A DNA stretch of 64,000 nucleotides, taken from contig CAIWHP010000218.1 in assembly GCA_903912445.1 (NCBI GenBank), forward strand, positions 36,329 to 100,328, given 5' to 3'. Under the pieces are notes generated by a model. The model was given only the letters and a program-made list of their open reading frames with translations, was not told the origin of the DNA and searched no databases. This DNA comes from an uncultured Lentisphaerota bacterium (GTDB lineage Bacteria > Verrucomicrobiota > Kiritimatiellia > CAIQIC01). A program made the position numbers and the translations under genes. Shown here piece by piece: positions 745-62,479 of the stretch; within the stretch, counting starts at the first letter, position 1; each line of letters begins with the position of its first letter.

Positions 745-3498
745 ATGAAGATTCCGGGCATCGCAGTGGGCTTGGTGGCGCTGGCGGCAGCGGCGGGCGC
801 GGCGGGCGCGGCGGAGGCGCCGCTGGTGTTGCGGTCGCAGGCCACGCACGGCGGCAGCGCGACGTGGCTCATGCAGCGCGCGGGTGACGCGCACGCCGAG
901 GGCGCGACGATCAGCACGCCGGGCTTCCAGACCGCGGGCTGGCAGAACGCGGTCGTGCCGGGCACGGTGCTCAACAGCCTCGTCAAGAACGGCGTCTACC
1001 CGGAGCCCTACTTCGGCCTCAACAACGCGCACGACTTCAAGAAGGTCCCCGACCTCAAGGACGTAGGCCTGGATTTCTACACCTACTGGTTCCGCACCGA
1101 GTTCGCACTGACGCCGGAGTTCGCCGGCCGGCGCGCCCTGCTGGAGCTCGGCGGCATCAACTACCGCGCCGAGATCTGGCTCAACGGCCAGAAGCTCGGC
1201 GACCTCGCGGGCATGTTTCAGCGTGGCTACTTCGACATCACCGCCCTCGCCAAGCCCAGCGGGCCGAACGCGCTCGCGGTGCGCGTGCGGCCGCCGGATA
1301 CGCCGGGCAACTTCCGTCCCAAGAAGGGTGGCGGCGGCGGCGCGGTCGGCGAGAACAGCAACGGCGGCGACCACACCTACGGCCAGAACGTGACGATGCT
1401 GATGAGCGTCGGCTGGGACTTCACCCTCCGCGACGGCGTGCGCGACCGCAACACCGGCGTCTGGAAAGATGTGAAGGTTTATCCCGTCGGCCCGGTGGCG
1501 CTGCGCGATCCGCAGGTGCGCTCCAAGCTGCCGCTGCCGCTGCTCGCGCCGGCGCGCGAGACCGTGGTGATCGAGGCGGTCAACCTGACCGGCGCGGAGC
1601 AAAAGGGCGTGCTGCGCGGAAAAATCCCCGGCGCGGGCGTGACGCTGGAGCAGCCCGTGACGCTCGCGGCCGGCGAGACGCGCACCCTCACCTTCACGCC
1701 GGAGCAGTTCCCGCAACTGGTCATCGCGCAGCCGCAGCTGTGGTGGCCGCTGAACAAGGGCGCGCAACACCTCTATAACCTCGAGTTGGAGTTCGTCGCT
1801 GCCGATGGCCGGGTGTCCGATCAATCCCGCTCGCGCTTCGGCATCCGCGAGATCACCAGCGACCAGCAGACGCCGGGCAGGGACCGCATCTTCTACGTCA
1901 ACGGCCAGCGCCTGTTCATCCGCGGCAGCAACTGGACCCCGGAGGCGATGTGCCGCGGCTCCGACGCGCGCACCTATGCCGAGCTGCGCTGGACCGCGCA
2001 GGCCGGCGTCAACCTGCTGCGCCAATGGGGCGGCGGCATCACCGAGTCGGACTACTTCTACGACCTGTGCGACGAGCTCGGCATCCTCGTCTGGACGGAA
2101 TTCTGGCTGACCGGCGACACCCTGCTGCCCGCCGAGCCGGAGCTCTATCGCGCGAACTTCGCCGACACGATCAAGCGCATCCGGCGCCATGCCTGCAATG
2201 CCTATTACGTCAGCGCCAACGAGCGCGACGCCAAGGGCGTCATCCCGGTCAAGGACCTGATCGACCAGCTCGACGGCACGACCGGCTGGCAGCCCGGCTC
2301 GGAGACCGACGGCATCCATGACGGCAGCCCCTACTGGACCTGCAACCCGATGTGGTACTACGAGGACAGCGCCTCGGAGCGCGGGAGCCGCATCTACGGT
2401 TTCAACCCGGAATACGGCTGCCCGTGCCTGCCGACGATCGACTGCCTGCGTGAGATGATGGACGAGAAGGACATCTGGCCGGTCAACAAAAACGTCTGGG
2501 ACTACCTCGACGGCGGCGGCTTCCACCGCATGTCCAGCGACTACCTGCGCGCGGTGGAGCAGTACGGCCCGATCCACAGCGCCGAGGAGCTCGCGCTACG
2601 CGCCCAGGCCTTCGGCGGCCTGGCCAACCGCGCGATCTGGGAATGCTGGAGCCGGAACAAGTTCGAGTTCGGCGACCGCTTCGGCACCGGCTTCCTCTTC
2701 TGGTATCACAACAGCCCCGAACCGCAGGTCTGCGGGCGCCTGTGGGATCACTCGCTCGAGCCGACCGCCGCACTCTACTTCACCCAGAAGGCCAACGAGC
2801 CGCGCCACGCGCAGTTCGACTTCCTCAAGAACGGCGTCAGCGTGGTCAACGAGCTGAAGCAGCCGTTCGCCGGCCGCGTCACGCTCCGCGTGCTCGATGG
2901 CGCGCTGAAGGAGATCATGCGGCAGGAGGCGGCCTGCTCCGTCGCCGCCGATGCCGTCACCAACGATGTCATCAAGGTAACGTGGCCCGCGCAGCTGCCG
3001 CCGGTCCAGTTTCTCAAGCTGGAATTGCGCGATGCCGGCGGCGCGCTCGTCAGCGATAATTTCTACTGGCGATCCGACAAGGCCTACCGCGCCGGGCCGC
3101 CCACCGCGACCGCGAAGCCGAAGGCGCCGCCGAAGCCCGGCGCGCCGCTGCGCTCATGGACCGGGCCGCAGTACGAGGGCTTCGAGTCGCTCGCCGCCCT
3201 GCCGCGCGTCGCGGTGGCGGCGCAGTTCGCGAAGAAGCAGGAGAACGGCTGGGCGCGCTACACCGGCACCGTGCGCAACCCCTCGCAGGGCCTGGCGTTC
3301 TTCGTCTGGCTGCGGCTGCAGGACGCCGCCACCGGCAAGCCCGTGCGGCCGGCCTACTTCAACGACAACTTCCTGATCCTGCTCCCCGGCGAGAGCAAGG
3401 CGATCACGATCGAGCACGACGAAGGCGTCACCGGCTCCCAGCCCACCCGGCTGGTCGTGGATGGCTGGAACATCGAGAAGCAGACGCTGAAGTTCTGA
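745..3498 (+). CDS. glycoside hydrolase family 2 protein (beta-mannosidase / exo-glucosaminidase-like), secreted
   Basis: ATG at 745 (aa 98 of track ORF 454..3498) gives signal peptide MKIPGIAVGLVALAAAAGAAGAAEA. GH2 sugar-binding-domain motif YRAEIWLNGQKLG and TIM-barrel motif NGQRLFIRGSNW; ~917 aa. Confidence 0.8.
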   Translation: MKIPGIAVGLVALAAAAGAAGAAEAPLVLRSQATHGGSATWLMQRAGDAHAEGATISTPGFQTAGWQNAVVPGTVLNSLVKNGVYPEPYFGLNNAHDFKKVPDLKDVGLDFYTYWFRTEFALTPEFAGRRALLELGGINYRAEIWLNGQKLGDLAGMFQRGYFDITALAKPSGPNALAVRVRPPDTPGNFRPKKGGGGGAVGENSNGGDHTYGQNVTMLMSVGWDFTLRDGVRDRNTGVWKDVKVYPVGPVALRDPQVRSKLPLPLLAPARETVVIEAVNLTGAEQKGVLRGKIPGAGVTLEQPVTLAAGETRTLTFTPEQFPQLVIAQPQLWWPLNKGAQHLYNLELEFVAADGRVSDQSRSRFGIREITSDQQTPGRDRIFYVNGQRLFIRGSNWTPEAMCRGSDARTYAELRWTAQAGVNLLRQWGGGITESDYFYDLCDELGILVWTEFWLTGDTLLPAEPELYRANFADTIKRIRRHACNAYYVSANERDAKGVIPVKDLIDQLDGTTGWQPGSETDGIHDGSPYWTCNPMWYYEDSASERGSRIYGFNPEYGCPCLPTIDCLREMMDEKDIWPVNKNVWDYLDGGGFHRMSSDYLRAVEQYGPIHSAEELALRAQAFGGLANRAIWECWSRNKFEFGDRFGTGFLFWYHNSPEPQVCGRLWDHSLEPTAALYFTQKANEPRHAQFDFLKNGVSVVNELKQPFAGRVTLRVLDGALKEIMRQEAACSVAADAVTNDVIKVTWPAQLPPVQFLKLELRDAGGALVSDNFYWRSDKAYRAGPPTATAKPKAPPKPGAPLRSWTGPQYEGFESLAALPRVAVAAQFAKKQENGWARYTGTVRNPSQGLAFFVWLRLQDAATGKPVRPAYFNDNFLILLPGESKAITIEHDEGVTGSQPTRLVVDGWNIEKQTLKF

Positions 3499-36683: not shown

Positions 36684-37516
36684 GGTGACAACCTTTCGAT
36701 GGAAAGCCGCGCGGCATCGTACTCAAACACCTCGAGCGTGACCACGCCGGAAAAGCCGCGCACCGCCTCCAGGAAACTCTCCAGCCGGCCCGGCGCGAGG
36801 GCCGTCAGCGGCAGATGGTCGCGCCCGTCGCGCTCGCCGTGCAGGTGGATCACCCGCGCCCGCGGCAGCCAGGTGCGCAGGAACGCCGGCACGTCGCCGC
36901 CGCCCCGCCAGACATGCCCCACATCGGCACAAACGCTCAAGCCGAACCGGTCGAGCAGCGGCGCGCACCACTCGAAGGGATAGTTCAAGCTCTCGACACA
37001 GAACAGGCCGGGCGGCGGCCCGTCCGCGAGCAGGCGTGGCAGCTCGGCGGCCACGTCGCGCTGCCACGCCGCGACACGCGCGGCGGAGTCGCCCGGGCCG
37101 ATACCTTCGAGGTGCAGGATGTAGCCATGCACCGGCAAGGGCGCGAGGAGTGTGATGATGCGGCGCATCTGGTCCACGTGCGCCGCGCGTTCGGCGGCGT
37201 CCGCACTGCCGAGTTTGCGGTCGGTCGGAAAATGCACGGTGTAGGTCAGGCGGTGCTGATGGCCCAGCTCGGCCAAGCGCGCGACGACTTCCGCCGAAGG
37301 CAGGTTCGCCGTCTGCTCCGACTCGAAGAGCACCAGTTCGATATCGTCCACGCGCCCGGCGAGGCGCTCGACGTTCGGCAGGATATCGGCCGGATAGACA
37401 TAGGAGGTGACGCCGACGCGAAACGGCCGCGGAAAGGGCAGCCGGGGTAAGGGTGGATGGTGGATGCCAGGAGACGGAAGCGCTGCAATATATTCTGGAT
37501 CAGGCCTTGTCGTCAT
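36656..37516 (-). CDS. xylose-isomerase-like TIM-barrel protein (sugar phosphate isomerase/epimerase family); CbiR-like candidate
   Basis: TIM-barrel sugar-phosphate isomerase/epimerase-like pattern (…VHGYILHLEG…, …VIHLHGE…); overlaps cobU start by 28 nt; the Akkermansia cobamide-remodelling enzyme CbiR belongs to this fold and sits in cobamide loci. Confidence 0.45.
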   Translation of the reverse strand: MTTRPDPEYIAALPSPGIHHPPLPRLPFPRPFRVGVTSYVYPADILPNVERLAGRVDDIELVLFESEQTANLPSAEVVARLAELGHQHRLTYTVHFPTDRKLGSADAAERAAHVDQMRRIITLLAPLPVHGYILHLEGIGPGDSAARVAAWQRDVAAELPRLLADGPPPGLFCVESLNYPFEWCAPLLDRFGLSVCADVGHVWRGGGDVPAFLRTWLPRARVIHLHGERDGRDHLPLTALAPGRLESFLEAVRGFSGVVTLEVFEYDAARLSIERLSPCLTQTKAG

Positions 37517-37549
37517 ATGCGTTTCTCATCCACCATTCACCATCCGCCA

Positions 37550-39484
37550 TCAACCATTCTCCATGGTTTCCGCCACCCATGCTTGCAGCGCCGGGAAAAG
37601 CGGCTGGTGACCGAGCGCGCGGTGGAGCTGGCGCAGCGCGGCGGGGATGTGGGCGGCAAATGCGGCCGACTCCGGCCGCGCCGAAAGCTTGGCAAAGGCG
37701 CCGAGCGCCTGGACCAGCCGCTGGATCGCGGCCAGCCAGAACAGGTCCACCGGCACCGCGCCACCACCCTCGCGCTGGTAGGCGCTCAGCAGGTGCAGCT
37801 GCACCTCTTCCGTGAGATCGGCGTAGGGATCGCAGAGCAGCGACGCGAGATCGTAGGCCGCCGGGCCCAGGCGCATCCCCTGGAAATCGATCAGGTGCGG
37901 GTGGTTCTCGCGCCAGATGATGTTGCTCGATTGCAGATCGCGATGCACCAGCACCTGCGGCTCGCGCTCCAGTTGCGCGGTGATACCGGCCAACTCCTGC
38001 AGGATGCTCGCGATGGTTTCCACCGGCACGCCGCAGCGGCGCGCCAGCATATGCTCGGCAAAATAGTCGTGCTCCCAACGGTAGAGCTCGGGCCCGAAGT
38101 CCGGCATCCGCGCCAGCCCGACGCGCCGGACCGCCTGCGCGCCCTGCGTGTGCAACAGCACGACCGGACGCAGCGCCAGTTCATACAGCGCCAGCAGGTC
38201 GGCGCGCGCGAGGCCTTTCGCGAGGTTCAGCAGGTCGCGCTCGCCCACGTCCTCGACGATGGTGAGCTGGTGCTCCGGGTCGTCGTGCAGCACCGCCGGC
38301 ACCGGCAAGCCCAGGTCCTTGAGGAAGCGCGCGTGCAGGGCGAAGAGCTTGTTCTCCGCGCGCGCCGGATCGTAGCGCATCAGGATCGCCGTCCTTGCGC
38401 CGCTCATCAGCCACACGAACGTCCGCTGCGAGCCGCGCATGCCATCGGTGGCGACGGTCGTCTGCGTCACATCAAAACCCACCGCGCGCACCGCCGCCTG
38501 CTCCGCGGCATCGAGCCAGCGCTCGGCGCGTCCGACGAGGCCGGTCACATTGTGTTCCACCAGGGTATCCGGCCCGACGACGGCGCCGAACACTTCCACC
38601 TGCGGCGCGATCCGCGCACCGGGCAACAGCACGCTCAGCTCCACGCGCGCTTCCGGCGCCACCGTCACGTTCTCCGCCATCGCGACGAAGCCCGCGCCCC
38701 GCCGCGGCAACTGGCCGGCGCGCTGCGCCAGCGCAGGATCAAAGAGCGCGCCGCCGCACCGCTGCTGCTGATGCAGTTCCATGACCGTGGCATGCGCCGC
38801 CACATAATCCATGGGGCGGCCGGCATCCGCCCAGAAGGCGCCGGGCACCACCACGCCGCGCACGACCTCGCCGCGCGCCAGCGCCGCCGTATAGGTGGGC
38901 GTCATGCTCGCGAACACCTCCTGCTGCGGCAGGAAATCCAGGATGCGCTTCGTGAGCAGGTGCAGGCCGGTGAACGTGAACAGGTCCGGCGCGCCGGCCC
39001 GCGGGCTGGTCAGGTTCAGGATGCGCCCCGCCTGCAGGTCCACGGTGCGCGGGCCGAGGTGCGGCATCAGCCAGAGCGCCGCGAGCGGCTGATGCTGCGC
39101 AAAATCCGCGAGCAGCGGCAGCGGATCGAGCGCGGCGGCGACATCGGCATTGAACAGCCAGAAGGGTCCGGCATCGGGCAGGAACGGCTTCGCGCGCACC
39201 AGCGCGCCGCCCGTGCCGAGGATTTCCGTTTCGACGGAAAACTGCACCTGCACATCGGTGCGGGGCTGCTTGGCGAGGTGCGCGCGGATGGCGTCGGCGC
39301 CGTGGTGCAGGTTGATGAGCACCTCGCGCACGCCGAAGCCGGCGAGCAGGTCGAGCGCGCGGTCGAGCAGCGTCCGGCCCCACAGCGGCAGCAGCGGCTT
39401 GGGCACCTCGCGGGTCAGCGGCAACAGCCGCGTGCCGAAGCCGGCGGCGAGCAGCACGGCCTTGGTTGGACGGGAAATTATCAC
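37550..39484 (-). CDS. bifunctional sugar-1-phosphate nucleotidyltransferase (N-term) / aminoglycoside-phosphotransferase-like kinase (C-term); MurU-AmgK-like fusion
   Basis: GTG start; N-terminus MIISRPTKAVLLAAGFGTRLLPLTREVPKPLLPL is an NTP-transferase signature; C-terminal HRDLQSSNIIWRE...LIDFQGMRLGPAAYDLASLL is an APH/choline-kinase-like catalytic loop plus DFG-like motif. Confidence 0.65.
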   Translation of the reverse strand: MIISRPTKAVLLAAGFGTRLLPLTREVPKPLLPLWGRTLLDRALDLLAGFGVREVLINLHHGADAIRAHLAKQPRTDVQVQFSVETEILGTGGALVRAKPFLPDAGPFWLFNADVAAALDPLPLLADFAQHQPLAALWLMPHLGPRTVDLQAGRILNLTSPRAGAPDLFTFTGLHLLTKRILDFLPQQEVFASMTPTYTAALARGEVVRGVVVPGAFWADAGRPMDYVAAHATVMELHQQQRCGGALFDPALAQRAGQLPRRGAGFVAMAENVTVAPEARVELSVLLPGARIAPQVEVFGAVVGPDTLVEHNVTGLVGRAERWLDAAEQAAVRAVGFDVTQTTVATDGMRGSQRTFVWLMSGARTAILMRYDPARAENKLFALHARFLKDLGLPVPAVLHDDPEHQLTIVEDVGERDLLNLAKGLARADLLALYELALRPVVLLHTQGAQAVRRVGLARMPDFGPELYRWEHDYFAEHMLARRCGVPVETIASILQELAGITAQLEREPQVLVHRDLQSSNIIWRENHPHLIDFQGMRLGPAAYDLASLLCDPYADLTEEVQLHLLSAYQREGGGAVPVDLFWLAAIQRLVQALGAFAKLSARPESAAFAAHIPAALRQLHRALGHQPLFPALQAWVAETMENG

Positions 39485-55806: not shown

Positions 55807-55905
55807 GCCTGGCCGGCGGCGGCAAGTCCACTACGTGAAACTATTTTTGAACATTTGACCCTAGAGCCACGTCAAACTGCATACGACTCGCGGAAAGGAA
55901 GCAAC

Positions 55906-56895
55906 ATGAGCAACGGAATCGGGATCATCAACGAGCAGGTGAAGGCGGAGAGCGCGTGGGTGGCGGCGCTGCGCGCGGAGATCGGCAAGGTCATCGTCGG
56001 GCAGAAATACCTGGTGGACCGCTTGCTGGTGGGCCTGCTGTCCAACGGCCACGTGCTGCTGGAGGGCGTGCCGGGCCTGGCCAAGACGCTGTCGGTCAAG
56101 ACGCTCGCCGCGGCCATCCACACCGGCTTCCAGCGCATCCAATTCACGCCCGACCTGCTGCCCGCCGACCTGCTCGGCACGCAGATCTACAGCCCCAAGG
56201 ACGGCACGTTCTCGACCAAGCGCGGGCCGATCTTCACCAACCTGCTGCTAGCCGACGAAATCAACCGCGCGCCGGCCAAGGTCCAGAGCGCGCTGCTGGA
56301 GGCGATGCAGGAGCGCCAGGTGACGCTCGGCGGCGAGACGCACAAGCTGCCCAGCCCGTTCCTCGTGCTCGCCACGGAGAACCCGATCGAGCAGGAAGGC
56401 ACCTACCCGCTGCCGGAGGCGCAGGTCGACCGCTTCATGCTCAAGCTGCGCATCACCTACCCGACGATCGAGGAAGAAAAACAGATCCTCGAGACGATGG
56501 CCGTCACCGAGCGGCAGTTCGCCGTGGCCCCCGTGGTCGAGCCGGACACGATCGCCCGCGCGCAGAAGGTCGTCAACGAGATCTACATGGACGACAAGAT
56601 CAAGGACTACATCCTGAGCATCGTCTTCGCCACGCGCGAGCCGGAGAAGTACAAGCTGGCGCTCAAGGACTACCTGCGCTACGGCGCCTCGCCGCGCGCG
56701 ACGATCTACCTCGCCGTGGCCGCGCGCGCCCAGGCGTTCCTGCAGGGGCGCGGCTACGTGACCCCGCAGGACGTCAAGACCATCGCGCCCGACGTGCTGC
56801 GCCACCGCATCATCGCCTCCTACGAGGCCGAGGCCGAGGAGCTGACCACCGACGACCTGATCGCGCGGATCCTAAGCGAATTACCCGTGCCGTGA
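55906..56895 (+). CDS. MoxR-family AAA+ ATPase
   Basis: ATG at 55906 (aa 18 of ORF 55855); Walker A LLEGVPGLAKT, Walker B FTNLLLADEINRAP; ~330 aa; first gene of Bat-type operon. Confidence 0.9.
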   Translation: MSNGIGIINEQVKAESAWVAALRAEIGKVIVGQKYLVDRLLVGLLSNGHVLLEGVPGLAKTLSVKTLAAAIHTGFQRIQFTPDLLPADLLGTQIYSPKDGTFSTKRGPIFTNLLLADEINRAPAKVQSALLEAMQERQVTLGGETHKLPSPFLVLATENPIEQEGTYPLPEAQVDRFMLKLRITYPTIEEEKQILETMAVTERQFAVAPVVEPDTIARAQKVVNEIYMDDKIKDYILSIVFATREPEKYKLALKDYLRYGASPRATIYLAVAARAQAFLQGRGYVTPQDVKTIAPDVLRHRIIASYEAEAEELTTDDLIARILSELPVP

Positions 56896-56920
56896 AAAGC
56901 TGACAAGGGCTGGAGCATTT

Positions 56921-57425
56921 CCGATTGAAGATTGCCGATTGCCGATTGCCGATTTGCGGTAGTGGAACTTAACGGAAGAAAAGCTGAAGCGTGCCGGGCG
57001 AGGTAGTGGATCATGACACCGGAAGAATTGAAAAAGCGCACGAAACAGTTCGCGCTGCGGGTGATCAAGCTGGTTACCGCGCTGCCCGACACGCCGTGGG
57101 GCCGGGTGGCGGGCCACCAGCTCCTGCGCGCGGGCACGGCGGTGGGAGCCAACTATCGAGCGGCCTGCCGCGCCCGGTCGCGCGCCGAGTTCGTCGCCAA
57201 GGTCGGCACCGTCATCGAGGAGTCTGACGAAAGCGCGTATTGGCTCGAACTCATTGTCGATAGCAAGCTGATGGATGCGAAACTGGTCACCGATCTCCAC
57301 CAAGAGGCGGAGGAACTCACGGCCATCATGACCTCCTCGCGTAAATCCGCGCAGAAAAATGCGCCCCCTTATGAATGAAAGGTTCCCTACCGCAAATCGG
57401 CAATCTTCAATCGGAAATCGAAAAT
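56921..57425. mobile_element. inverted-repeat-flanked cassette carrying a four-helix-bundle protein gene, inserted between moxR and the DUF58 gene
   Basis: Left repeat ccgattgaagattgccgattgccgattgccgatttgcgg (56921-56958); right repeat ccgcaaatcggcaatcttcaatcggaaatcgaaaa (57390-57425) is its imperfect reverse complement; cargo is the 4HB gene 57013..57378. Confidence 0.55.
57013..57378 (+). CDS. four-helix-bundle protein (23S rRNA intervening-sequence protein family, TIGR02436-like)
   Basis: 121 aa; MTPEELKKRTKQFALRVIKL...GHQLLRAGTAVGANYRAACRARSRAEFVAKVGTVIEESDESAYWLELI.... Confidence 0.85.
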   Translation: MTPEELKKRTKQFALRVIKLVTALPDTPWGRVAGHQLLRAGTAVGANYRAACRARSRAEFVAKVGTVIEESDESAYWLELIVDSKLMDAKLVTDLHQEAEELTAIMTSSRKSAQKNAPPYE

Positions 57426-57437
57426 AGCGTTTTTCCC

Positions 57438-58322
57438 ATGCTCGCCAAAGAGATCATCAAAAAAGTTCGCCAGATCGAGATCCGTACGCGGCATCTCGTG
57501 AACGACGTCTTTGCGGGCGAGTACCACAGCGTCTTCAAGGGCCGCGGCATGGAGTTCCAGGAGGTGCGCGAGTACGAGCCGGGCGACGACATCCGCGCGA
57601 TCGACTGGAACGTCACGGCGCGCATGGGCCACCCCTTCATCAAGAAGTTCAGCGAGGAGCGCGAGCTGACCGTGATGCTGCTGGTGGACATCAGCGGCTC
57701 GAACCAGTTCGGCTCCGGCACGCAGCTCAAGCAGGACCTCGCCGCCGAGCTCGCCGCCGTGCTCGCCTTCGCCGCCATCCGCAACAACGACCGCGTCGGC
57801 CTGATCCTCTTCAGCGACGAGGTGGAGCATTATCTCCCGCCCAAGAAGGGCAGCAGCCACGTCCTGCGCGTCGTGCGCGACGTGCTCGGCTTCCGCGCCA
57901 AGCGCCGCGGCACCGCCCTGGCGCCGGCGCTGGATTTCCTCAACCACACCACCGCGCGCAAGACGGTGACGTTCCTCATCAGCGATTTCATCACGCGGGA
58001 GGACCTGAAGGCCGCGCTGCGCGTCAGCGCCACGCGCCACGACCTCGTCGCCGTCGTCACGGCCGACCCGCGCGAGCGCGTCTGGCCAGCCGCCGGCCTG
58101 GTGGAATGGCGCGACCCGGAAACCGGCGCCGTCCAGGTGTGCGACACCTCGAGCCCGCGCGTGCGCCAGGCCCTGACGCGGCAGTTCGACCAGCAGCGCA
58201 CCGACCTCAAGCAGCGGCTGGCGCGCACCGGGCTGGACGTGGTCGAGGTCTGGGCCGGCGAGGCCTATGACCGCGAGCTGGTGCGCTTCTTCAAGGCGCG
58301 CGAACGGCGGCTGCGGACATGA
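57438..58322 (+). CDS. DUF58 domain protein (Bat-operon vWA-like)
   Basis: ATG at 57438 (aa 22 of ORF 57375); GEYHSVFKGRGMEFQEVREYEPGDDIRAIDWNVTAR is the DUF58 core; MLLVDISGSN vWA-like MIDAS region. Confidence 0.85.
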   Translation: MLAKEIIKKVRQIEIRTRHLVNDVFAGEYHSVFKGRGMEFQEVREYEPGDDIRAIDWNVTARMGHPFIKKFSEERELTVMLLVDISGSNQFGSGTQLKQDLAAELAAVLAFAAIRNNDRVGLILFSDEVEHYLPPKKGSSHVLRVVRDVLGFRAKRRGTALAPALDFLNHTTARKTVTFLISDFITREDLKAALRVSATRHDLVAVVTADPRERVWPAAGLVEWRDPETGAVQVCDTSSPRVRQALTRQFDQQRTDLKQRLARTGLDVVEVWAGEAYDRELVRFFKARERRLRT

Positions 58323-59392: not shown

Positions 59393-60346
59393 ATGACTTT
59401 CTGTTATCCATGGCTGTTGCTGGCGGCGCTGCTGATCCCGGCGGTGCTTTGGCTGCGGTTTGCGCACCGCCGGCCGACGCTGAACTTCAGCGACGGCGGG
59501 CGGCTCGCGCACCTGCCGCGGACTTGGGCCGTCCGGCTCCAGCCCGCCCTGCCGGTCCTGTACGCGCTCGGCCTGCTGTGCCTAGTCATCGCCCTCGCCC
59601 GCCCGCAAAAAGGCCTCGAAGAAAGCCGCGTCCGCACCGAGGCCGTGGACATCGTGCTGCTGGTGGACGTCTCGCCCTCGATGAACATCCCCGATTTCTC
59701 CACGCCCATGCGCACGATGAACCGGCTCGACGCCGCCAAGACGGTGCTCGACAAGTTCATCGCCAGCCGCACACACGACCGGCTCGGAATGATCGGCTTC
59801 TCCGCCTTCCCCTACACGCTCTGCCCGCTGACGCTCGACCACGGCTGGCTGCTGGAGCGCATGCGCAACCTGCGCCCCGGCATGCTGGGCGACGCCACCG
59901 GCATCGGCGACGCGATGGCTTCCGCCGTCAACCGCCTGCGCGACAGCAAGGCCAAGAGCAAGGTCGTCGTCCTGCTGACTGACGGTCAGAATAACTGCGG
60001 CCTGATGCAGCCCGACATCGCGGCGCAGGCGGCGAAGGCGCTCGGCATCAAGATCTACACCGTCGGCGCCAGCAGCCGCACCACCCGCGGCGCCGGCGAT
60101 GACGGCGTGGACGAGGCCGCGCTCAAGCGCATCGCCGAAACCACCGGCGCCGCCTACTTCCGCGCCGCCAACCTCGACCGGATGCAGCACGTCTACGAGC
60201 AGATCGACAAGATGGAAAAGACGGAGATCCAGGTGGACCACTTTACGCGCTTCCACGAACTGGCCACCCCGTGGCTGCTGGCCGCGCTGCTGCTGCTGGG
60301 CCTGGAACAAGCGCTCGCGCTGACGCGGCTGGGGAGGCTCCCATGA
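59393..60346 (+). CDS. batA: vWA domain-containing protein BatA
   Basis: Two N-terminal TM helices, vWA MIDAS motif VDIVLLVDVSPSM...TDGQNN, C-terminal TM. Confidence 0.8.
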   Translation: MTFCYPWLLLAALLIPAVLWLRFAHRRPTLNFSDGGRLAHLPRTWAVRLQPALPVLYALGLLCLVIALARPQKGLEESRVRTEAVDIVLLVDVSPSMNIPDFSTPMRTMNRLDAAKTVLDKFIASRTHDRLGMIGFSAFPYTLCPLTLDHGWLLERMRNLRPGMLGDATGIGDAMASAVNRLRDSKAKSKVVVLLTDGQNNCGLMQPDIAAQAAKALGIKIYTVGASSRTTRGAGDDGVDEAALKRIAETTGAAYFRAANLDRMQHVYEQIDKMEKTEIQVDHFTRFHELATPWLLAALLLLGLEQALALTRLGRLP

Positions 60347-60354
60347 GGAAATTG

Positions 60355-60576
60355 ACGATTGCAGATTGCCGATTGAAGATTTGTGGAAGGGCACACTTCC
60401 TTAGAATCAGAAAGGCAAGCTGCGCCCTTTCCCAGGCCTTGGGAAAAACAGCACTTTCGTTTGATAAGCTTTGGAACGAAGTGTGTGTGGACCTTTTTGA
60501 CACCGCCCATGGGTCATTCTTAGTCCGGTTCGCTACCGCCAATCGGCAATCGGCAATCTTCAATCGGAAATTCCGC
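60355..60576. mobile_element. second inverted-repeat-flanked insertion (same CCGATTG-rich terminal repeats) with ~150 bp non-coding cargo, between batA and batB
   Basis: Left gacgattgcagattgccgattgaagatttgtgg (60355-60387); right ccgccaatcggcaatcggcaatcttcaatcggaaattccgc (60536-60576), reverse-complement related; cargo contains one tttcccaggccttgggaaaaa palindrome (60428-60448) and no ORF. Confidence 0.5.
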
Positions 60577-60578
60577 TG

Positions 60579-61592
60579 ATGCAATTCGGTCATCCAGAGT
60601 GGTTGTACGCGCTGTGGGGCTTGCTCCCGCTGGCATGGCTCGGCTTCGCGCTGCTCGCGTGGCGCGAGCGGCGGCTGGGGCAGCTCGCCGCGCTGAAGCT
60701 GTGGGCCGTCCTCGCGCCGGAGCGCAGCCTGGCGCGCCGCCGCCTGCGCCTCGCCCTCTGGTTCGCCGCCGCCGCGCTGCTCATCGCCGCCCTGGCGCGC
60801 CCGCAGTGGGGCTTCCGCTGGGAGGACGTCAAGCGGCGCGGACTCGACATCCTCGTCGTGCTGGACACCTCGCGCAGCATGGCGTCGCAGGACATCAAGC
60901 CCAACCGCCTGCAGCGCGCAAAGTGGGGCGTGCGCGACCTCCTTGGCAAGCTGCAGGGCGACCGCGTCGGCCTGATCGCCTTCGCGGGCACGAGCTATGC
61001 GGCCTGCCCGCTGACGATCGACTATGCCGCCTTCGCGGCGATGCTCGACGATGTCTACGTGGGTTTCGTGCCGCGCGGCGGCACGGCCATCGCGCAGTCG
61101 CTGGACACCGCGATCCGCAGCTTCGAAAGCGGCGGCGAGGCCGACCGCGCCATCGTCCTGATCACCGACGGGGAAGACCACGAGGGCGATCCCCTCGCGC
61201 GCATCGCCGGGCTGAAGGCGAAGAACATCCGCGTCTACGCAGTCGGCGTCGGCACCCCGGATGGCGAACTGATCCCCGAAGAGGCCGGCGGCCACGCCGG
61301 CTTCCTCAAGGACCGCGCCGGCAACGTGGTCAAGTCCGCCTTGCGCGAGGACGTGTTGCGCCGGCTCGCGGTGGAGACCGGCGGCGCCTACGTCCGCGCG
61401 ACGCCCGGCGACTTCGGGCTGGAACGGATCTATGACCAGGGCATCGCCCAGCTCAAGCGCGACGAGCAGTCGGGGCGGCTCTCGCAGATCGCCGAGGAGC
61501 GCTATCCATGGTTCATCGGGGCGGCGCTCGTGCTGCTGCTCGCCGAGGCGCTCATCGGCCTGCGCCGGCGTAATCCGGAGGCAGCGCGATGA
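60579..61592 (+). CDS. batB: vWA domain-containing protein BatB
   Basis: N-terminal TMs, vWA MIDAS LDILVVLDTSRSM...ITDGEDHEGD, C-terminal TM; stop overlaps batC start. Confidence 0.8.
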   Translation: MQFGHPEWLYALWGLLPLAWLGFALLAWRERRLGQLAALKLWAVLAPERSLARRRLRLALWFAAAALLIAALARPQWGFRWEDVKRRGLDILVVLDTSRSMASQDIKPNRLQRAKWGVRDLLGKLQGDRVGLIAFAGTSYAACPLTIDYAAFAAMLDDVYVGFVPRGGTAIAQSLDTAIRSFESGGEADRAIVLITDGEDHEGDPLARIAGLKAKNIRVYAVGVGTPDGELIPEEAGGHAGFLKDRAGNVVKSALREDVLRRLAVETGGAYVRATPGDFGLERIYDQGIAQLKRDEQSGRLSQIAEERYPWFIGAALVLLLAEALIGLRRRNPEAAR

Positions 61593-62479
61593 GGAGCTTC
61601 CTCCGCATCTCCTGTAGCGGCGACCTGCGGTCGCCGTCGGCGGCCACAGGCCGCCGCTACAGTTGCGCGCTGCTGCTGGCGTTCGCGTGTCAGCTTTCCG
61701 CGCGCGCCGCGACCGATCCGCGTGCCGCGCTCGAGGCCGGCACAAAGGCCTACGGCGCCAAACAATTCGAAGCCGCCCGGCAGGCATTCGAGCAGGCGGC
61801 GACCAACGCCGCCGCCCACCAGCTCGATCCGGCGGTCGCCCGCTACAATGCGGCCGCGGCCGACTACCGCCTCGGGCAGCTGGATGCCGCGGCCGACCGG
61901 CTGGCCGAGGCGCTGCGCACCGGCGACCTGCAGCTCCAACAGAAGGCGTGGTTCAATCGTGGCGATGTCATGCTCGGGCGCATGGGCCAGCTGGAGCAGC
62001 AGGGCAAGCTGGAGGACGCGCAGAAGGCGGCCGCGGAAGCCGCGACCCAGTTCGAGCAGGCGATCCTGCTCGATCCGGCGGACGCCGATGCCAAGGTGAA
62101 CTACGAGCTCTGCCTCCAGCTGCAGCAGGAGCTGGAGAAGAAAAAACAGGAGCAGCAGCAAAAGCAGGACAAGGATAAGAAGGACCAGGACAAGCAGAAG
62201 CAGGACAAGGATAAAGACAAGGACAAGAAAGACCAGCAGGACCAGCAGAAGAAGCCGGAGGCCGGGCAGGACAAGGATAAAGACAAAGATCAACAGCAGT
62301 CCAAACCCGATGAAAAGCAGCAGCAACAGCAGGCAGCGCAAGCGGAGAAGAAGGATGGCGAGATGACCCCGGATGAGGCCAAGCAGCTCCTCAACGCCAT
62401 GCGGCAGGAGGAGCAGGCGAACCGCGAGAAAATGCGTTTGAACCTCGGCCAGCCGGAACCTGTCGAAAAGGATTGGTGA
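61589..62479 (+). CDS. batC: TPR-repeat protein BatC with Lys/Asp/Gln-rich low-complexity tail
   Basis: Signal peptide, TPR-like helices (AYGAKQFEAARQAFEQAA..., ...ARYNAAAADYRLGQLDAAADRLAEAL), then KKKQEQQQKQDKDKKDQDKQKQDKDKDKDKKDQQDQQKK charged tail. Confidence 0.75.
   Translation: MRSFLRISCSGDLRSPSAATGRRYSCALLLAFACQLSARAATDPRAALEAGTKAYGAKQFEAARQAFEQAATNAAAHQLDPAVARYNAAAADYRLGQLDAAADRLAEALRTGDLQLQQKAWFNRGDVMLGRMGQLEQQGKLEDAQKAAAEAATQFEQAILLDPADADAKVNYELCLQLQQELEKKKQEQQQKQDKDKKDQDKQKQDKDKDKDKKDQQDQQKKPEAGQDKDKDKDQQQSKPDEKQQQQQAAQAEKKDGEMTPDEAKQLLNAMRQEEQANREKMRLNLGQPEPVEKDW

Follow-up and report, generated by a model that had tools for sequence, protein, structure and literature searches.

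This work describes a putative selfish cassette, here called element 1, at positions 56917-57425 of a 64,000-nt stretch of DNA (the window) from an uncultured Lentisphaerota bacterium (contig CAIWHP010000218.1). Element 1 consists of a gene for a four-helix-bundle (4HB) protein enclosed by inverted arrays of tandem 7-nt units (heptads), and it lies between moxR and a DUF58 gene in a Bat operon. We interpret it, with a probability of roughly 0.65, as a selfish hairpin cassette, spread horizontally and similar in kind to the intervening sequences (IVSs) of rRNA genes, lodged here in the mRNA spacer of a protein-coding operon. A second, gene-less stretch in the same operon, element 2, is a noncoding member of the same repeat family that fills the batA-batB spacer. 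Comparison with other genomes suggests that the architecture of the open reading frame (ORF)-bearing IVS, a heptad stem with an S23p gene, is a general habit of this protein family, found mostly in spacers of protein-coding operons and accompanied by many gene-less derivatives.

The cassette gene is present in the ORF list of the window as a plus-strand frame of 121 codons with an ATG start (57013..57378). Its product matches the Pfam family PF05635 (23S_rRNA_IVP; E 3.5e-14, 53.3 bits against a cut-off of 33.8) and the NCBIfam model TIGR02436, named "four helix bundle protein" (E 5e-22, 78.2 bits against a cut-off of 24), and these matches assign it to the S23p, or 23S rRNA IVS protein, family. 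In addition, a profile of its subfamily matches PDB entry 2RLD, a protein with a solved four-helix-bundle structure, over residues 1-116 (E 9.6e-26), making the window protein a putative four-helix bundle by homology; the 2RLD entry comprises five chains of a single sequence. An earlier note on this DNA, made from the letters alone, had proposed a 121-aa four-helix-bundle gene between moxR and DUF58, and the ORF and both family matches bear this out. Among the 4HB copies found at this junction, the ratio of nonsynonymous to synonymous substitution rates (dN/dS) is 0.05-0.12, which points to strong purifying selection and a functional protein. The moxR stop codon lies at 56893-56895 (the true moxR start may be 55956), and the likely start of DUF58 is the ATG at 57438, 12 nt past the right arm of element 1. 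The DUF58 start listed at 57375 is disfavored, as a frame from there would run through the right arm and the ATG at 57438 is conserved in relatives.

The arms of element 1 are built of GATTKNN heptads, with the complement NNMAATC in the opposite arm. Tandem Repeats Finder (TRF) detects a period of 7 and 5.4 copies in the left arm (56917-56954). Between the arms, a 24-nt core is 100% complementary (56917-56940 with 57395-57418), and a second pairing covers 41 nt at 85% (56930-56970 with 57379-57419); the latter is displaced by two additional GCCGATT units of the left arm. Following the tandem units, both arms carry an inner stem of unique sequence, TGCGGTAG(T)GGAAC. The CCGATTG-rich inverted repeats that the earlier note placed around the gene are thus real and somewhat longer than the approximately 35 bp claimed (56917-56970 and 57379-57425). 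A search for CCGATTGCCGATT with up to two mismatches returned 15 matches in the 64-kb window against 2.5 expected, a number reached by 0 of 100 shuffles; 13 of the 15 fall within the four arms of elements 1 and 2. When folded as RNA, element 1 gives -232 kcal/mol (z -4.66), no shuffle folds equally well, and the closing stem in both the minimum-free-energy and the centroid folds is the pairing of arm with arm.

Element 2 has the same design around a noncoding interior. Its left arm begins immediately after the batA stop codon, and within its right arm positions 60540-60571 are the reverse complement of 56917-56948, at 100% over 32 nt. The four arms of both elements, together with the arms found in relatives, align to a single consensus (..ATTGNNGATTGNNGATTGCCGATTTGCGGTAGGGAAC). 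As RNA, element 2 (60347-60575) folds to -93.9 kcal/mol (z -5.89), again with an arm-arm closing stem and with no shuffle equaling it. A second, gene-less insertion of the same repeat type had been claimed at 60355-60576, and it is recovered here with arms at about 60347-60390 and 60533-60575 and with the 32-nt perfect match to element 1. In 34 related Bat loci, batA and batB are separated by a median of 1 nt, and only two loci, L126 and L133, exceed 100 nt (L numbers are our labels for loci in other genomes). The insert in L126 is orthologous to element 2, the right end being 97% identical over 38 nt. A decayed 4HB gene was considered for the interior of element 2 and rejected, as neither blastn at the nucleotide level nor six-frame hmmsearch gave any similarity. 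An Rfam search in E-value mode over 54-64 kb returned nothing relevant in either element and no rRNA match. A separate repeat class is also present in element 2: palindromes of about 19-20 nt, of the form TTTTCCACGSCATGGAAAA or TTTCCCAGGCCTTGGGAAA, occur singly in the window (60428-60446) and in tandem, with a period of about 38 nt, in the DUF58-orfX spacers and the batA-batB element of relatives (L126 4466-4864; L180 4876-5119; L193 3103-3318; L197 3371-3542). Coordinates of both elements and of the host genes are collected in Table 1.

Table 1. Components of elements 1 and 2 and adjoining Bat operon genes in the window (SD, Shine-Dalgarno; vWA, von Willebrand factor A)
Feature	Coordinates	Strand	Evidence
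Element 1, left arm: TCCGATT-GAAGATT-GCCGATT x3, then inner stem TGCGGTAGTGGAAC	56917..56970	+	Repeat search; TRF; 5' half of closing stem
Element 1, leader of cassette ORF, with GAGG (SD-like) about 9 nt 5' of the ATG	56971..57012	+	Sequence; no promoter-like site
Element 1, 4HB gene (S23p / 23S_rRNA_IVP / TIGR02436), 121 aa	57013..57378	+	PF05635; TIGR02436; 2RLD profile match; dN/dS
Element 1, right arm: GGTTCCCTACCGCA, then AATCGGC-AATCTTC-AATCGGA-AATCGAA	57379..57425	+	Repeat search; 3' half of closing stem
Element 2, left arm: GACGATT-GCAGATT-GCCGATT-GAAGATT, then TGTGGAAGGG	60347..60390	+	Repeats; fold; alignment with element 1 arms
Element 2, interior, noncoding, one palindrome TTTCCCAGGCCTTGGGAAA at 60428-60446	60391..60532	+	blastn; six-frame hmmsearch; Rfam
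Element 2, right arm: CTACCGCC, then AATCGGC-AATCGGC-AATCTTC-AATCGGA	60533..60575	+	Repeats; fold
moxR, upstream host gene of element 1, AAA_3 ATPase	55855..56895	+	Pfam AAA_3 (E 3e-65), AAA_lid_2
DUF58 (vWA-like), downstream host gene of element 1	57438..58322	+	Pfam DUF58 (E 2e-76); start kept in relatives
BatA-like vWA gene, upstream of element 2	59393..60346	+	Pfam VWA, BatA
BatB-like vWA gene, downstream of element 2	60579..61592	+	Pfam VWA_2, BatA

The state of the moxR-DUF58 junction in other genomes was gauged from 80 related Bat loci, retrieved by a metagenome scan with the DUF58 protein; 69 of these hold both genes. In all 69, moxR is directly upstream of DUF58 apart from hairpin or cassette inserts, in agreement with the earlier statement that the two genes are normally adjacent. 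The empty site that had been proposed as a check was found in L138, whose DUF58 protein is 90% identical to that of the window and whose spacer has 6 nt (TAA-CATCCC-ATG), and in L127 (71% identical, 24-nt spacer). The same cassette, with a 4HB protein 81-93% identical, occupies the junction in L124, L126, L130, and L206 (DUF58 89-95% identical in the first three), with a duplicated right end in L124 and a duplicated left end in L130. L134 (88% identical) holds a 128-nt gene-less hairpin with arms as in element 1; it appears to derive from a loaded element by deletion, because the right inner stem CCCTACCGCAAATCGG is kept and the left partner is missing. Other loci carry other inserts: a different 4HB gene (63% identical) between GCGGATT and AATCCGC heptads in L125 (DUF58 92% identical) and a gene-less hairpin of GGAGTG-type units in L123 (95% identical). 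Among farther relatives, the same junction is occupied by a 4HB gene of 45% identity with GCGGATT and AATCCAA heptads (L153), by one of a different subfamily with GAGTGAT and ATCACTC heptads (L188), and by decayed-looking 4HB genes without arrays (L143 and L198).

This comparison shows element 1 to be a discrete and optional cassette, with gain, loss, and replacement apparently recurrent between lineages; repeated gain is indicated because different cassettes occupy one site (L125, L188, L153, and L123). Relative to the common junction state, both window elements are insertions. The cassette-bearing relatives have flanking repeats, so we judge that the arrangement named in advance as contrary to a mobile cassette, with the gene at this junction and no repeats around it, is not found among them. 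Spacers between moxR and DUF58 exceed 100 nt in 27 of the 69 loci (within L123-L202), and the other Bat junctions have medians of about 0-5 nt. Most of the long spacers inspected are hairpins formed by inverted arrays of 7- or 8-nt units whose sequences are unrelated. Several of their 5' arms are rich in GGAG or GAGG and the matching 3' arms in CTCC, resembling SD and anti-SD sequences.

For elements outside the window, gene order was taken from precomputed gene calls or from tblastn matches to the Bat proteins of the window. The arrays fit closely between the host genes: the distance from the upstream stop codon to the left array is 0-8 nt at 18 of 19 junctions, the stop codon sometimes lying inside the array (in L222, the upstream host gene ends at a TGA within the left array), and 0-17 nt separate the right array from the following start codon in the junctions inspected (n = 19). 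By hand tally, the 4HB ORF is codirectional with the upstream gene in all of the approximately 15 loci of known gene order. Host contexts comprise Bat, resistance-nodulation-division (RND) efflux, xanthine-dehydrogenase-like, and thiolase operons, as well as sites downstream of a DEAD/ResIII helicase gene and of an SSF transporter gene; every sampled context supports the preference for operon spacers suggested earlier. In the RND operons, the spacer between the membrane-fusion (MFP, CzcB-like) and ACR_tran pump genes holds a 4HB gene in four of seven subfamily-A look-ups, all in different metagenome-assembled genomes (MAGs). These RND loci (L212, L214, L215/L216, and L217, at about 2800-3430 in each) form a second recurrent junction besides moxR-DUF58.

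A scan for promoters and terminators gave no plus-strand signal inside element 1, and this, combined with the exclusive sense orientation, implies dependence on read-through transcription from the host operon. Two further searches concerned the means of insertion. No direct repeat of the target site flanks the arms at the 19 junctions or appears when the empty junction (L138) is compared with filled ones, so that the target-site duplications (TSDs) sought at the repeat boundaries on the earlier suggestion were not found. Likewise, no transposase or recombinase accompanies the approximately 30 loaded elements or occurs among their neighboring genes.

In order to describe how widely 4HB genes and inverted heptad arrays occur together, two samples were used. 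The first came from a scan of a genome collection with CGATTGNNGATTGCCGATT, which retrieved at least 120 loci (L001-L120); being motif selected, this set is biased. The matches listed span Verrucomicrobiota, Planctomycetota, Acidobacteriota, Chloroflexota, Bacteroidota, Cyanobacteria, and others. In about 10 of the loci, arrays enclose a close 4HB homologue, and most others are short hairpins or solo arrays; gene-less heptad hairpins are much commoner than gene-loaded ones. In the 120 loci listed, adjacent arrays form 36 pairs in the order GATT..AATC, mostly with loops of <100 nt, and 8 pairs in the reverse order. Of the 202 arrays among the same matches, 88 have their inverted partner on the expected side and 19 on the other, with 0 in shuffles.

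The second sample was gathered by protein similarity, independently of the motif, and consists of three viral contigs, seven homologues on long contigs (64-81% identity), and the Bat-locus set. All of the 4HB genes sampled in this manner (L124-L130, L153, L203, L205, L206, L207, L209, L212, L214, L215, and L217) have an xGATTxx array upstream and a complementary array at or just past the 3' end. For 25 loaded elements, the flanks were analyzed by lag autocorrelation against control lags, and lag 7 gave the strongest signal upstream in 19 of 25 cases and downstream in 24 of 25, compared to about 10% of control pieces. The inverted-repeat score for arm pairing is 20.6 within an element, 13.2 between elements, and 7.7 in shuffles. 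The heptad logo reads G-A-T-T-K-N-N; positions 1 and 5, which were not used in registration, are 88% G and 95-100% G/T, respectively. A scan of viral contigs with the subfamily profile gave only three loci, two of them from the same region and all with heptad arms, and on account of this small number phages do not appear to be the main carriers. Our literature search found no description of heptad-array hairpin cassettes around 4HB genes outside rRNA; subscription journals were thinly covered, and an earlier description is possible.

Several variants of the arrangement were observed in these samples. Many elements have an ORF that runs into the right array before any stop codon, giving repeat-encoded C-terminal tails such as NPQSAIRNPQS and NPKSKIQNPKS (ORFs reading into the array were found in L125, L153, L013, L209, L212, and L214-L217). 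L217 has a solo hairpin beside the loaded element, and in L214 the left end (array, leader, and first four codons) is present three times in tandem. Solo heptad arrays, which have no inverted counterpart and all point the same way along a gene cluster, are found in an Opitutaceae MAG (L023, 1434-6508) and a Verrucomicrobiia MAG (L011, 4135-7607). In the former, AATCGNC arrays immediately precede pseudopilin-like genes that have a GFTLLE motif, or fall inside their 5' ends; in the latter, GATTTAC arrays immediately follow stop codons.

The heptad core differs between protein subfamilies. The subfamily of the window has the core GATTK in its logo, and its 4HB proteins are 60-70% identical across phyla. 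Homologues number at least 7994 clusters at 90% identity, and an exhaustive search gave 9393 clusters at 50% identity at E<=1e-3 and 3298 at E<=1e-10. The subfamily of the L188 type (at least 5556 clusters) is associated with GCGTGAA (L218), ACGTAAA (L221), ACGTGAA (L222), and GAGTGAT (L188) heptads and their complements, a classic IVP-type gene in L058 with GTTCATA units, and a truncated IVP-type gene in L027 with CTTTGTA units. Among gene-less hairpins of the Bat spacers, the 7- or 8-nt units are diverse and include GGAGTGTT, GGAATGAT, AAGAGTT, ATTGAAT, and CACAGAGG. The features conserved throughout are the period and the inverted arrangement, with the unit sequence following the element lineage. 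Between the window and L124, L126, and L206, synonymous divergence (dS) is 0.46-1.0 for the 4HB gene (57013-57378) and 0.21-0.59 for the adjacent DUF58 gene (57438-58319). This approximately twofold higher dS could stem from cassettes being exchanged between lineages or simply from a weaker codon bias.

IVSs in rRNA have counted as oddities ever since they became known around 1990, and "four helix bundle protein" genes are among the commonest unexplained small genes of Verrucomicrobiota, Planctomycetota, Acidobacteriota, Chloroflexota, Bacteroidota, and Cyanobacteria. The IVS in the 23S rRNA of Coxiella burnetii is a 428-nt selfish element with an S23p ORF in its loop; its 5' stem contains two or three tandem GACAGAT heptamers, the number varying by strain, and RNase III cuts the stem at the first repeat (Warrier et al. 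2016, PMC4990558). As cited in that paper, the structure of S23p from Xanthomonas is a homopentameric toroid, and Ralph and McClelland proposed that the IVS is mobile and that its ORF serves this mobility. Genes of the 23S_rRNA_IVP family have also been found in 16S and 23S insertions of candidate phyla radiation (CPR) bacteria, have been noticed among CRISPR-associated genes, and lie inside cas operons, as seen between cmr3 and cmr2 (PMC3936711).

Element 1 shares with the ORF-bearing 23S rRNA IVSs (Leptospira, Coxiella burnetii, Xanthomonas, and Brucella) the same PF05635/TIGR02436 protein, encoded in sense in the loop of a terminal inverted-repeat stem. Both have tandem heptamers 5' of the ORF in variable copy number, both are sporadic and horizontally acquired, both have ORF-less versions, and both are taken as selfish elements. 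Anatomically, element 1 is an ORF-bearing IVS in every respect except location, as it lies between moxR and DUF58 rather than in helix 9, 25, or 45 of 23S rRNA. The two also differ in that the ORF of element 1 is under strong purifying selection, whereas that of Coxiella is decaying and probably untranslated. In contrast to the rRNA IVSs, the SD-like site of element 1 lies inside the stem and would for this reason survive cleavage. Excision of element 1 by RNase III is proposed by analogy.

Under the proposed mechanism, the cassette would be transcribed by read-through from the Bat operon promoter, as is suggested by the rRNA IVSs. The arms would then pair in the RNA as a stem of about 25-45 bp, bringing the moxR stop codon and the DUF58 start codon together. 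The heptad stem, of 21-45 bp, may be an RNase III substrate, as in rRNA IVSs, three heptads corresponding to about two helical turns. Through stem folding and the proposed processing by RNase III, the insertion would be nearly harmless to the host operon, and cleavage would release a stem-capped 4HB mini-mRNA that retains its SD-like site. The 4HB protein would serve the element, by binding its own heptad arrays and aiding maintenance or spread, rather than the Bat pathway. Recognition of the conserved GATTK core of these arrays by the 4HB oligomer is speculative, as is the mode of entry, for which landing or exchange at preexisting heptad arrays would fit better than classical transposition; such a route is hinted at by the duplicated ends (L124, L130, and L214), by the solo hairpin beside the loaded one in L217, and by the hot-spot junctions.

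Several points weigh against our interpretation of element 1. Its stem is imperfect, with a 14-nt register offset between the arms, and both transcription of the arms and cleavage by RNase III are proposed by analogy. The term "mobile" rests on polymorphism between metagenomic relatives, as no TSD or recombinase was found in the loci inspected and the 64 kb contain only two family members. In addition, the polymorphism at the junction could in part be loss from an ancestral filled site. The motif-independent set is small (about 20 loci), and several of its members are orthologous. Finally, heptad core and protein subfamily would be correlated even without an interaction of protein and repeat if whole elements share common descent.

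Miniature inverted-repeat transposable elements (MITEs), repetitive extragenic palindromic (REP) sequences, bacterial interspersed mosaic elements (BIMEs), and Correia-type repeats are small intergenic inverted-repeat elements, often in operons and polymorphic between strains. The cassette shares with them its intergenic inverted repeats, a large excess of gene-less copies, and polymorphic presence, and the earlier note had proposed a MITE-like mobile cassette. The part of that proposal concerning a discrete and optional cassette stands, given the empty, gene-less, and replaced junctions; the MITE mechanism is not supported. A classical MITE, or nonautonomous DNA transposon with a passenger gene, would move by cut-and-paste, its arms being the terminal inverted repeats (TIRs) of a transposase encoded elsewhere. 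The inverted termini, the short gene-less versions that outnumber loaded ones (the 36 GATT..AATC pairs of the motif-selected loci listed), the polarity bias of the arms (88 against 19 and 0 among the matches listed), the presence/absence polymorphism at the junction, and the 32-nt identical arm segment common to two elements in one genome are all in keeping with such a transposon. We nevertheless regard it as unlikely. Neither the 19 junctions nor the comparison of empty with filled sites revealed a TSD, no transposase or REP-associated tyrosine transposase (RAYT) was found with any of the approximately 30 loaded elements, and the cargo is a 4HB gene rather than a transposase gene. Arms of tandem heptads in which number and unit vary and only the period is kept are unlike a transposase binding site, and an element with symmetric TIRs should insert both ways, whereas the ORF is always in sense in the approximately 15 contexts. 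The same architecture, moreover, exists in rRNA IVSs.

An explanation that we find still harder to accept is that the hairpins benefit the host in RNA processing, attenuation, or stability, as REP/BIME sequences or the short tandemly repeated repetitive (STRR) sequences of cyanobacteria might, with the 4HB gene a secondary lodger or a Bat accessory. STRR sequences are tandem heptamers (known units are CCCCAGT, TTGGTCA, and CAACAGT) that occur between genes and in a helix of RNase P RNA, and their inverted arrays can form hairpins. To our knowledge, such arrays have been described only in heterocystous cyanobacteria. Tandem heptanucleotide units in noncoding DNA are common to both systems; the window differs in its GATTKNN units and in a host that, judging by the names of its relatives, seems to be of a Verrucomicrobiota/Kiritimatiellota type, with high GC and a freshwater habitat, and not cyanobacterial, and no link of STRR sequences to 4HB genes was found in the literature searched. 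The many moxR-DUF58 spacers of >100 nt (27 of 69), often hairpins of unrelated units, suggest that a hairpin is tolerated or useful there, and a host function is also favored by the solo arrays of L011 and L023, which directly follow stop codons or precede start codons. On the other hand, the empty 6-nt spacer in a relative with a 90%-identical DUF58 (L138) shows that the hairpin is dispensable. The cassette type also occupies unrelated operons (RND efflux, xanthine-dehydrogenase-like, restriction helicase, and thiolase), which argues against a Bat-specific role, and 4HB protein and arrays travel together across phyla.

The accessory protein of diversity-generating retroelements (DGRs), Avd, has a homologous four-helix-bundle fold and is itself a pentamer. 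That the 4HB gene is such an Avd homologue, left as a stray piece of a DGR, is very improbable despite the assignment of Avd proteins to PF05635 (PMC10053308). The window gene stands alone between heptad arrays with Bat operon genes on both sides, no reverse transcriptase (RT) domain or pair of template and variable repeats turned up among the flanking ORFs scanned, PADLOC gave no match for the 4HB protein, and the ten nearest contexts are likewise without an RT.

If element 1 is indeed an IVS-type cassette, the finding ties rRNA IVSs to the abundant "four helix bundle protein" genes and to arrays of heptanucleotide repeats, and it extends to thousands of loci. It would provide a concrete model for 4HB genes, as selfish hairpin cassettes rendered harmless by RNA folding and processing, and would explain the previously puzzling 23S_rRNA_IVP genes inside cas operons. 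It also flags a likely source of operon-internal RNA processing sites and of miscalled CRISPR-like or tandem repeats in metagenomes, and it raises the question of whether a 4HB pentamer binds its cognate heptads and whether RNase III cuts the stem.

A more ambitious proposal, tentative and on balance doubtful, is that PF05635 4HB genes, together with their inverted heptad arrays, are autonomous mobile elements that form a very large class extending across phyla. The 4HB protein, probably pentameric, would recognize a 4-5-nt heptad core in RNA or single-stranded DNA and promote propagation or retention of the hairpin, and gene-less hairpins and solo arrays would be nonautonomous dependents. Recognition might be akin to that of spaced GAG repeats by the tryptophan RNA-binding attenuation protein (TRAP). 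Spread could be RNA mediated with a host RT, as Avd acts with the RT of a DGR, or could proceed by targeting of incoming copies to resident arrays. Were this true, rRNA IVSs and cyanobacterial STRR sequences would be special cases of one system, with at least 9,000 clusters at 50% identity for the subfamily of the window alone and several subfamilies besides.

A third pair of heptad arrays in the window, built of a different unit, lies at 37450-37466 (GGTGGAT, two copies) and 37527-37560 (CATCCAC-like, five copies). It sits in the minus-strand spacer between ORFs 37550..39484 and 36656..~37440, next to an NTP_transferase-APH fusion gene and a xylose-isomerase-like TIM-barrel gene. This pair (37450-37560) was rejected as a folding hairpin, with a fold z of 0.0 against shuffles, and may be a decayed element. 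Within the Bat operon, DUF58 is followed by a DUF4381-like ORF, the BatA-like and BatB-like vWA genes, and one more ORF. That last ORF (61589..62479) contains an imperfect 36-nt/15-nt tandem repeat (AAGCAGGACAAGGAT...) at 62162-62254, whose unit sequence would predict a low-complexity stretch rich in Lys, Asp, and Gln.

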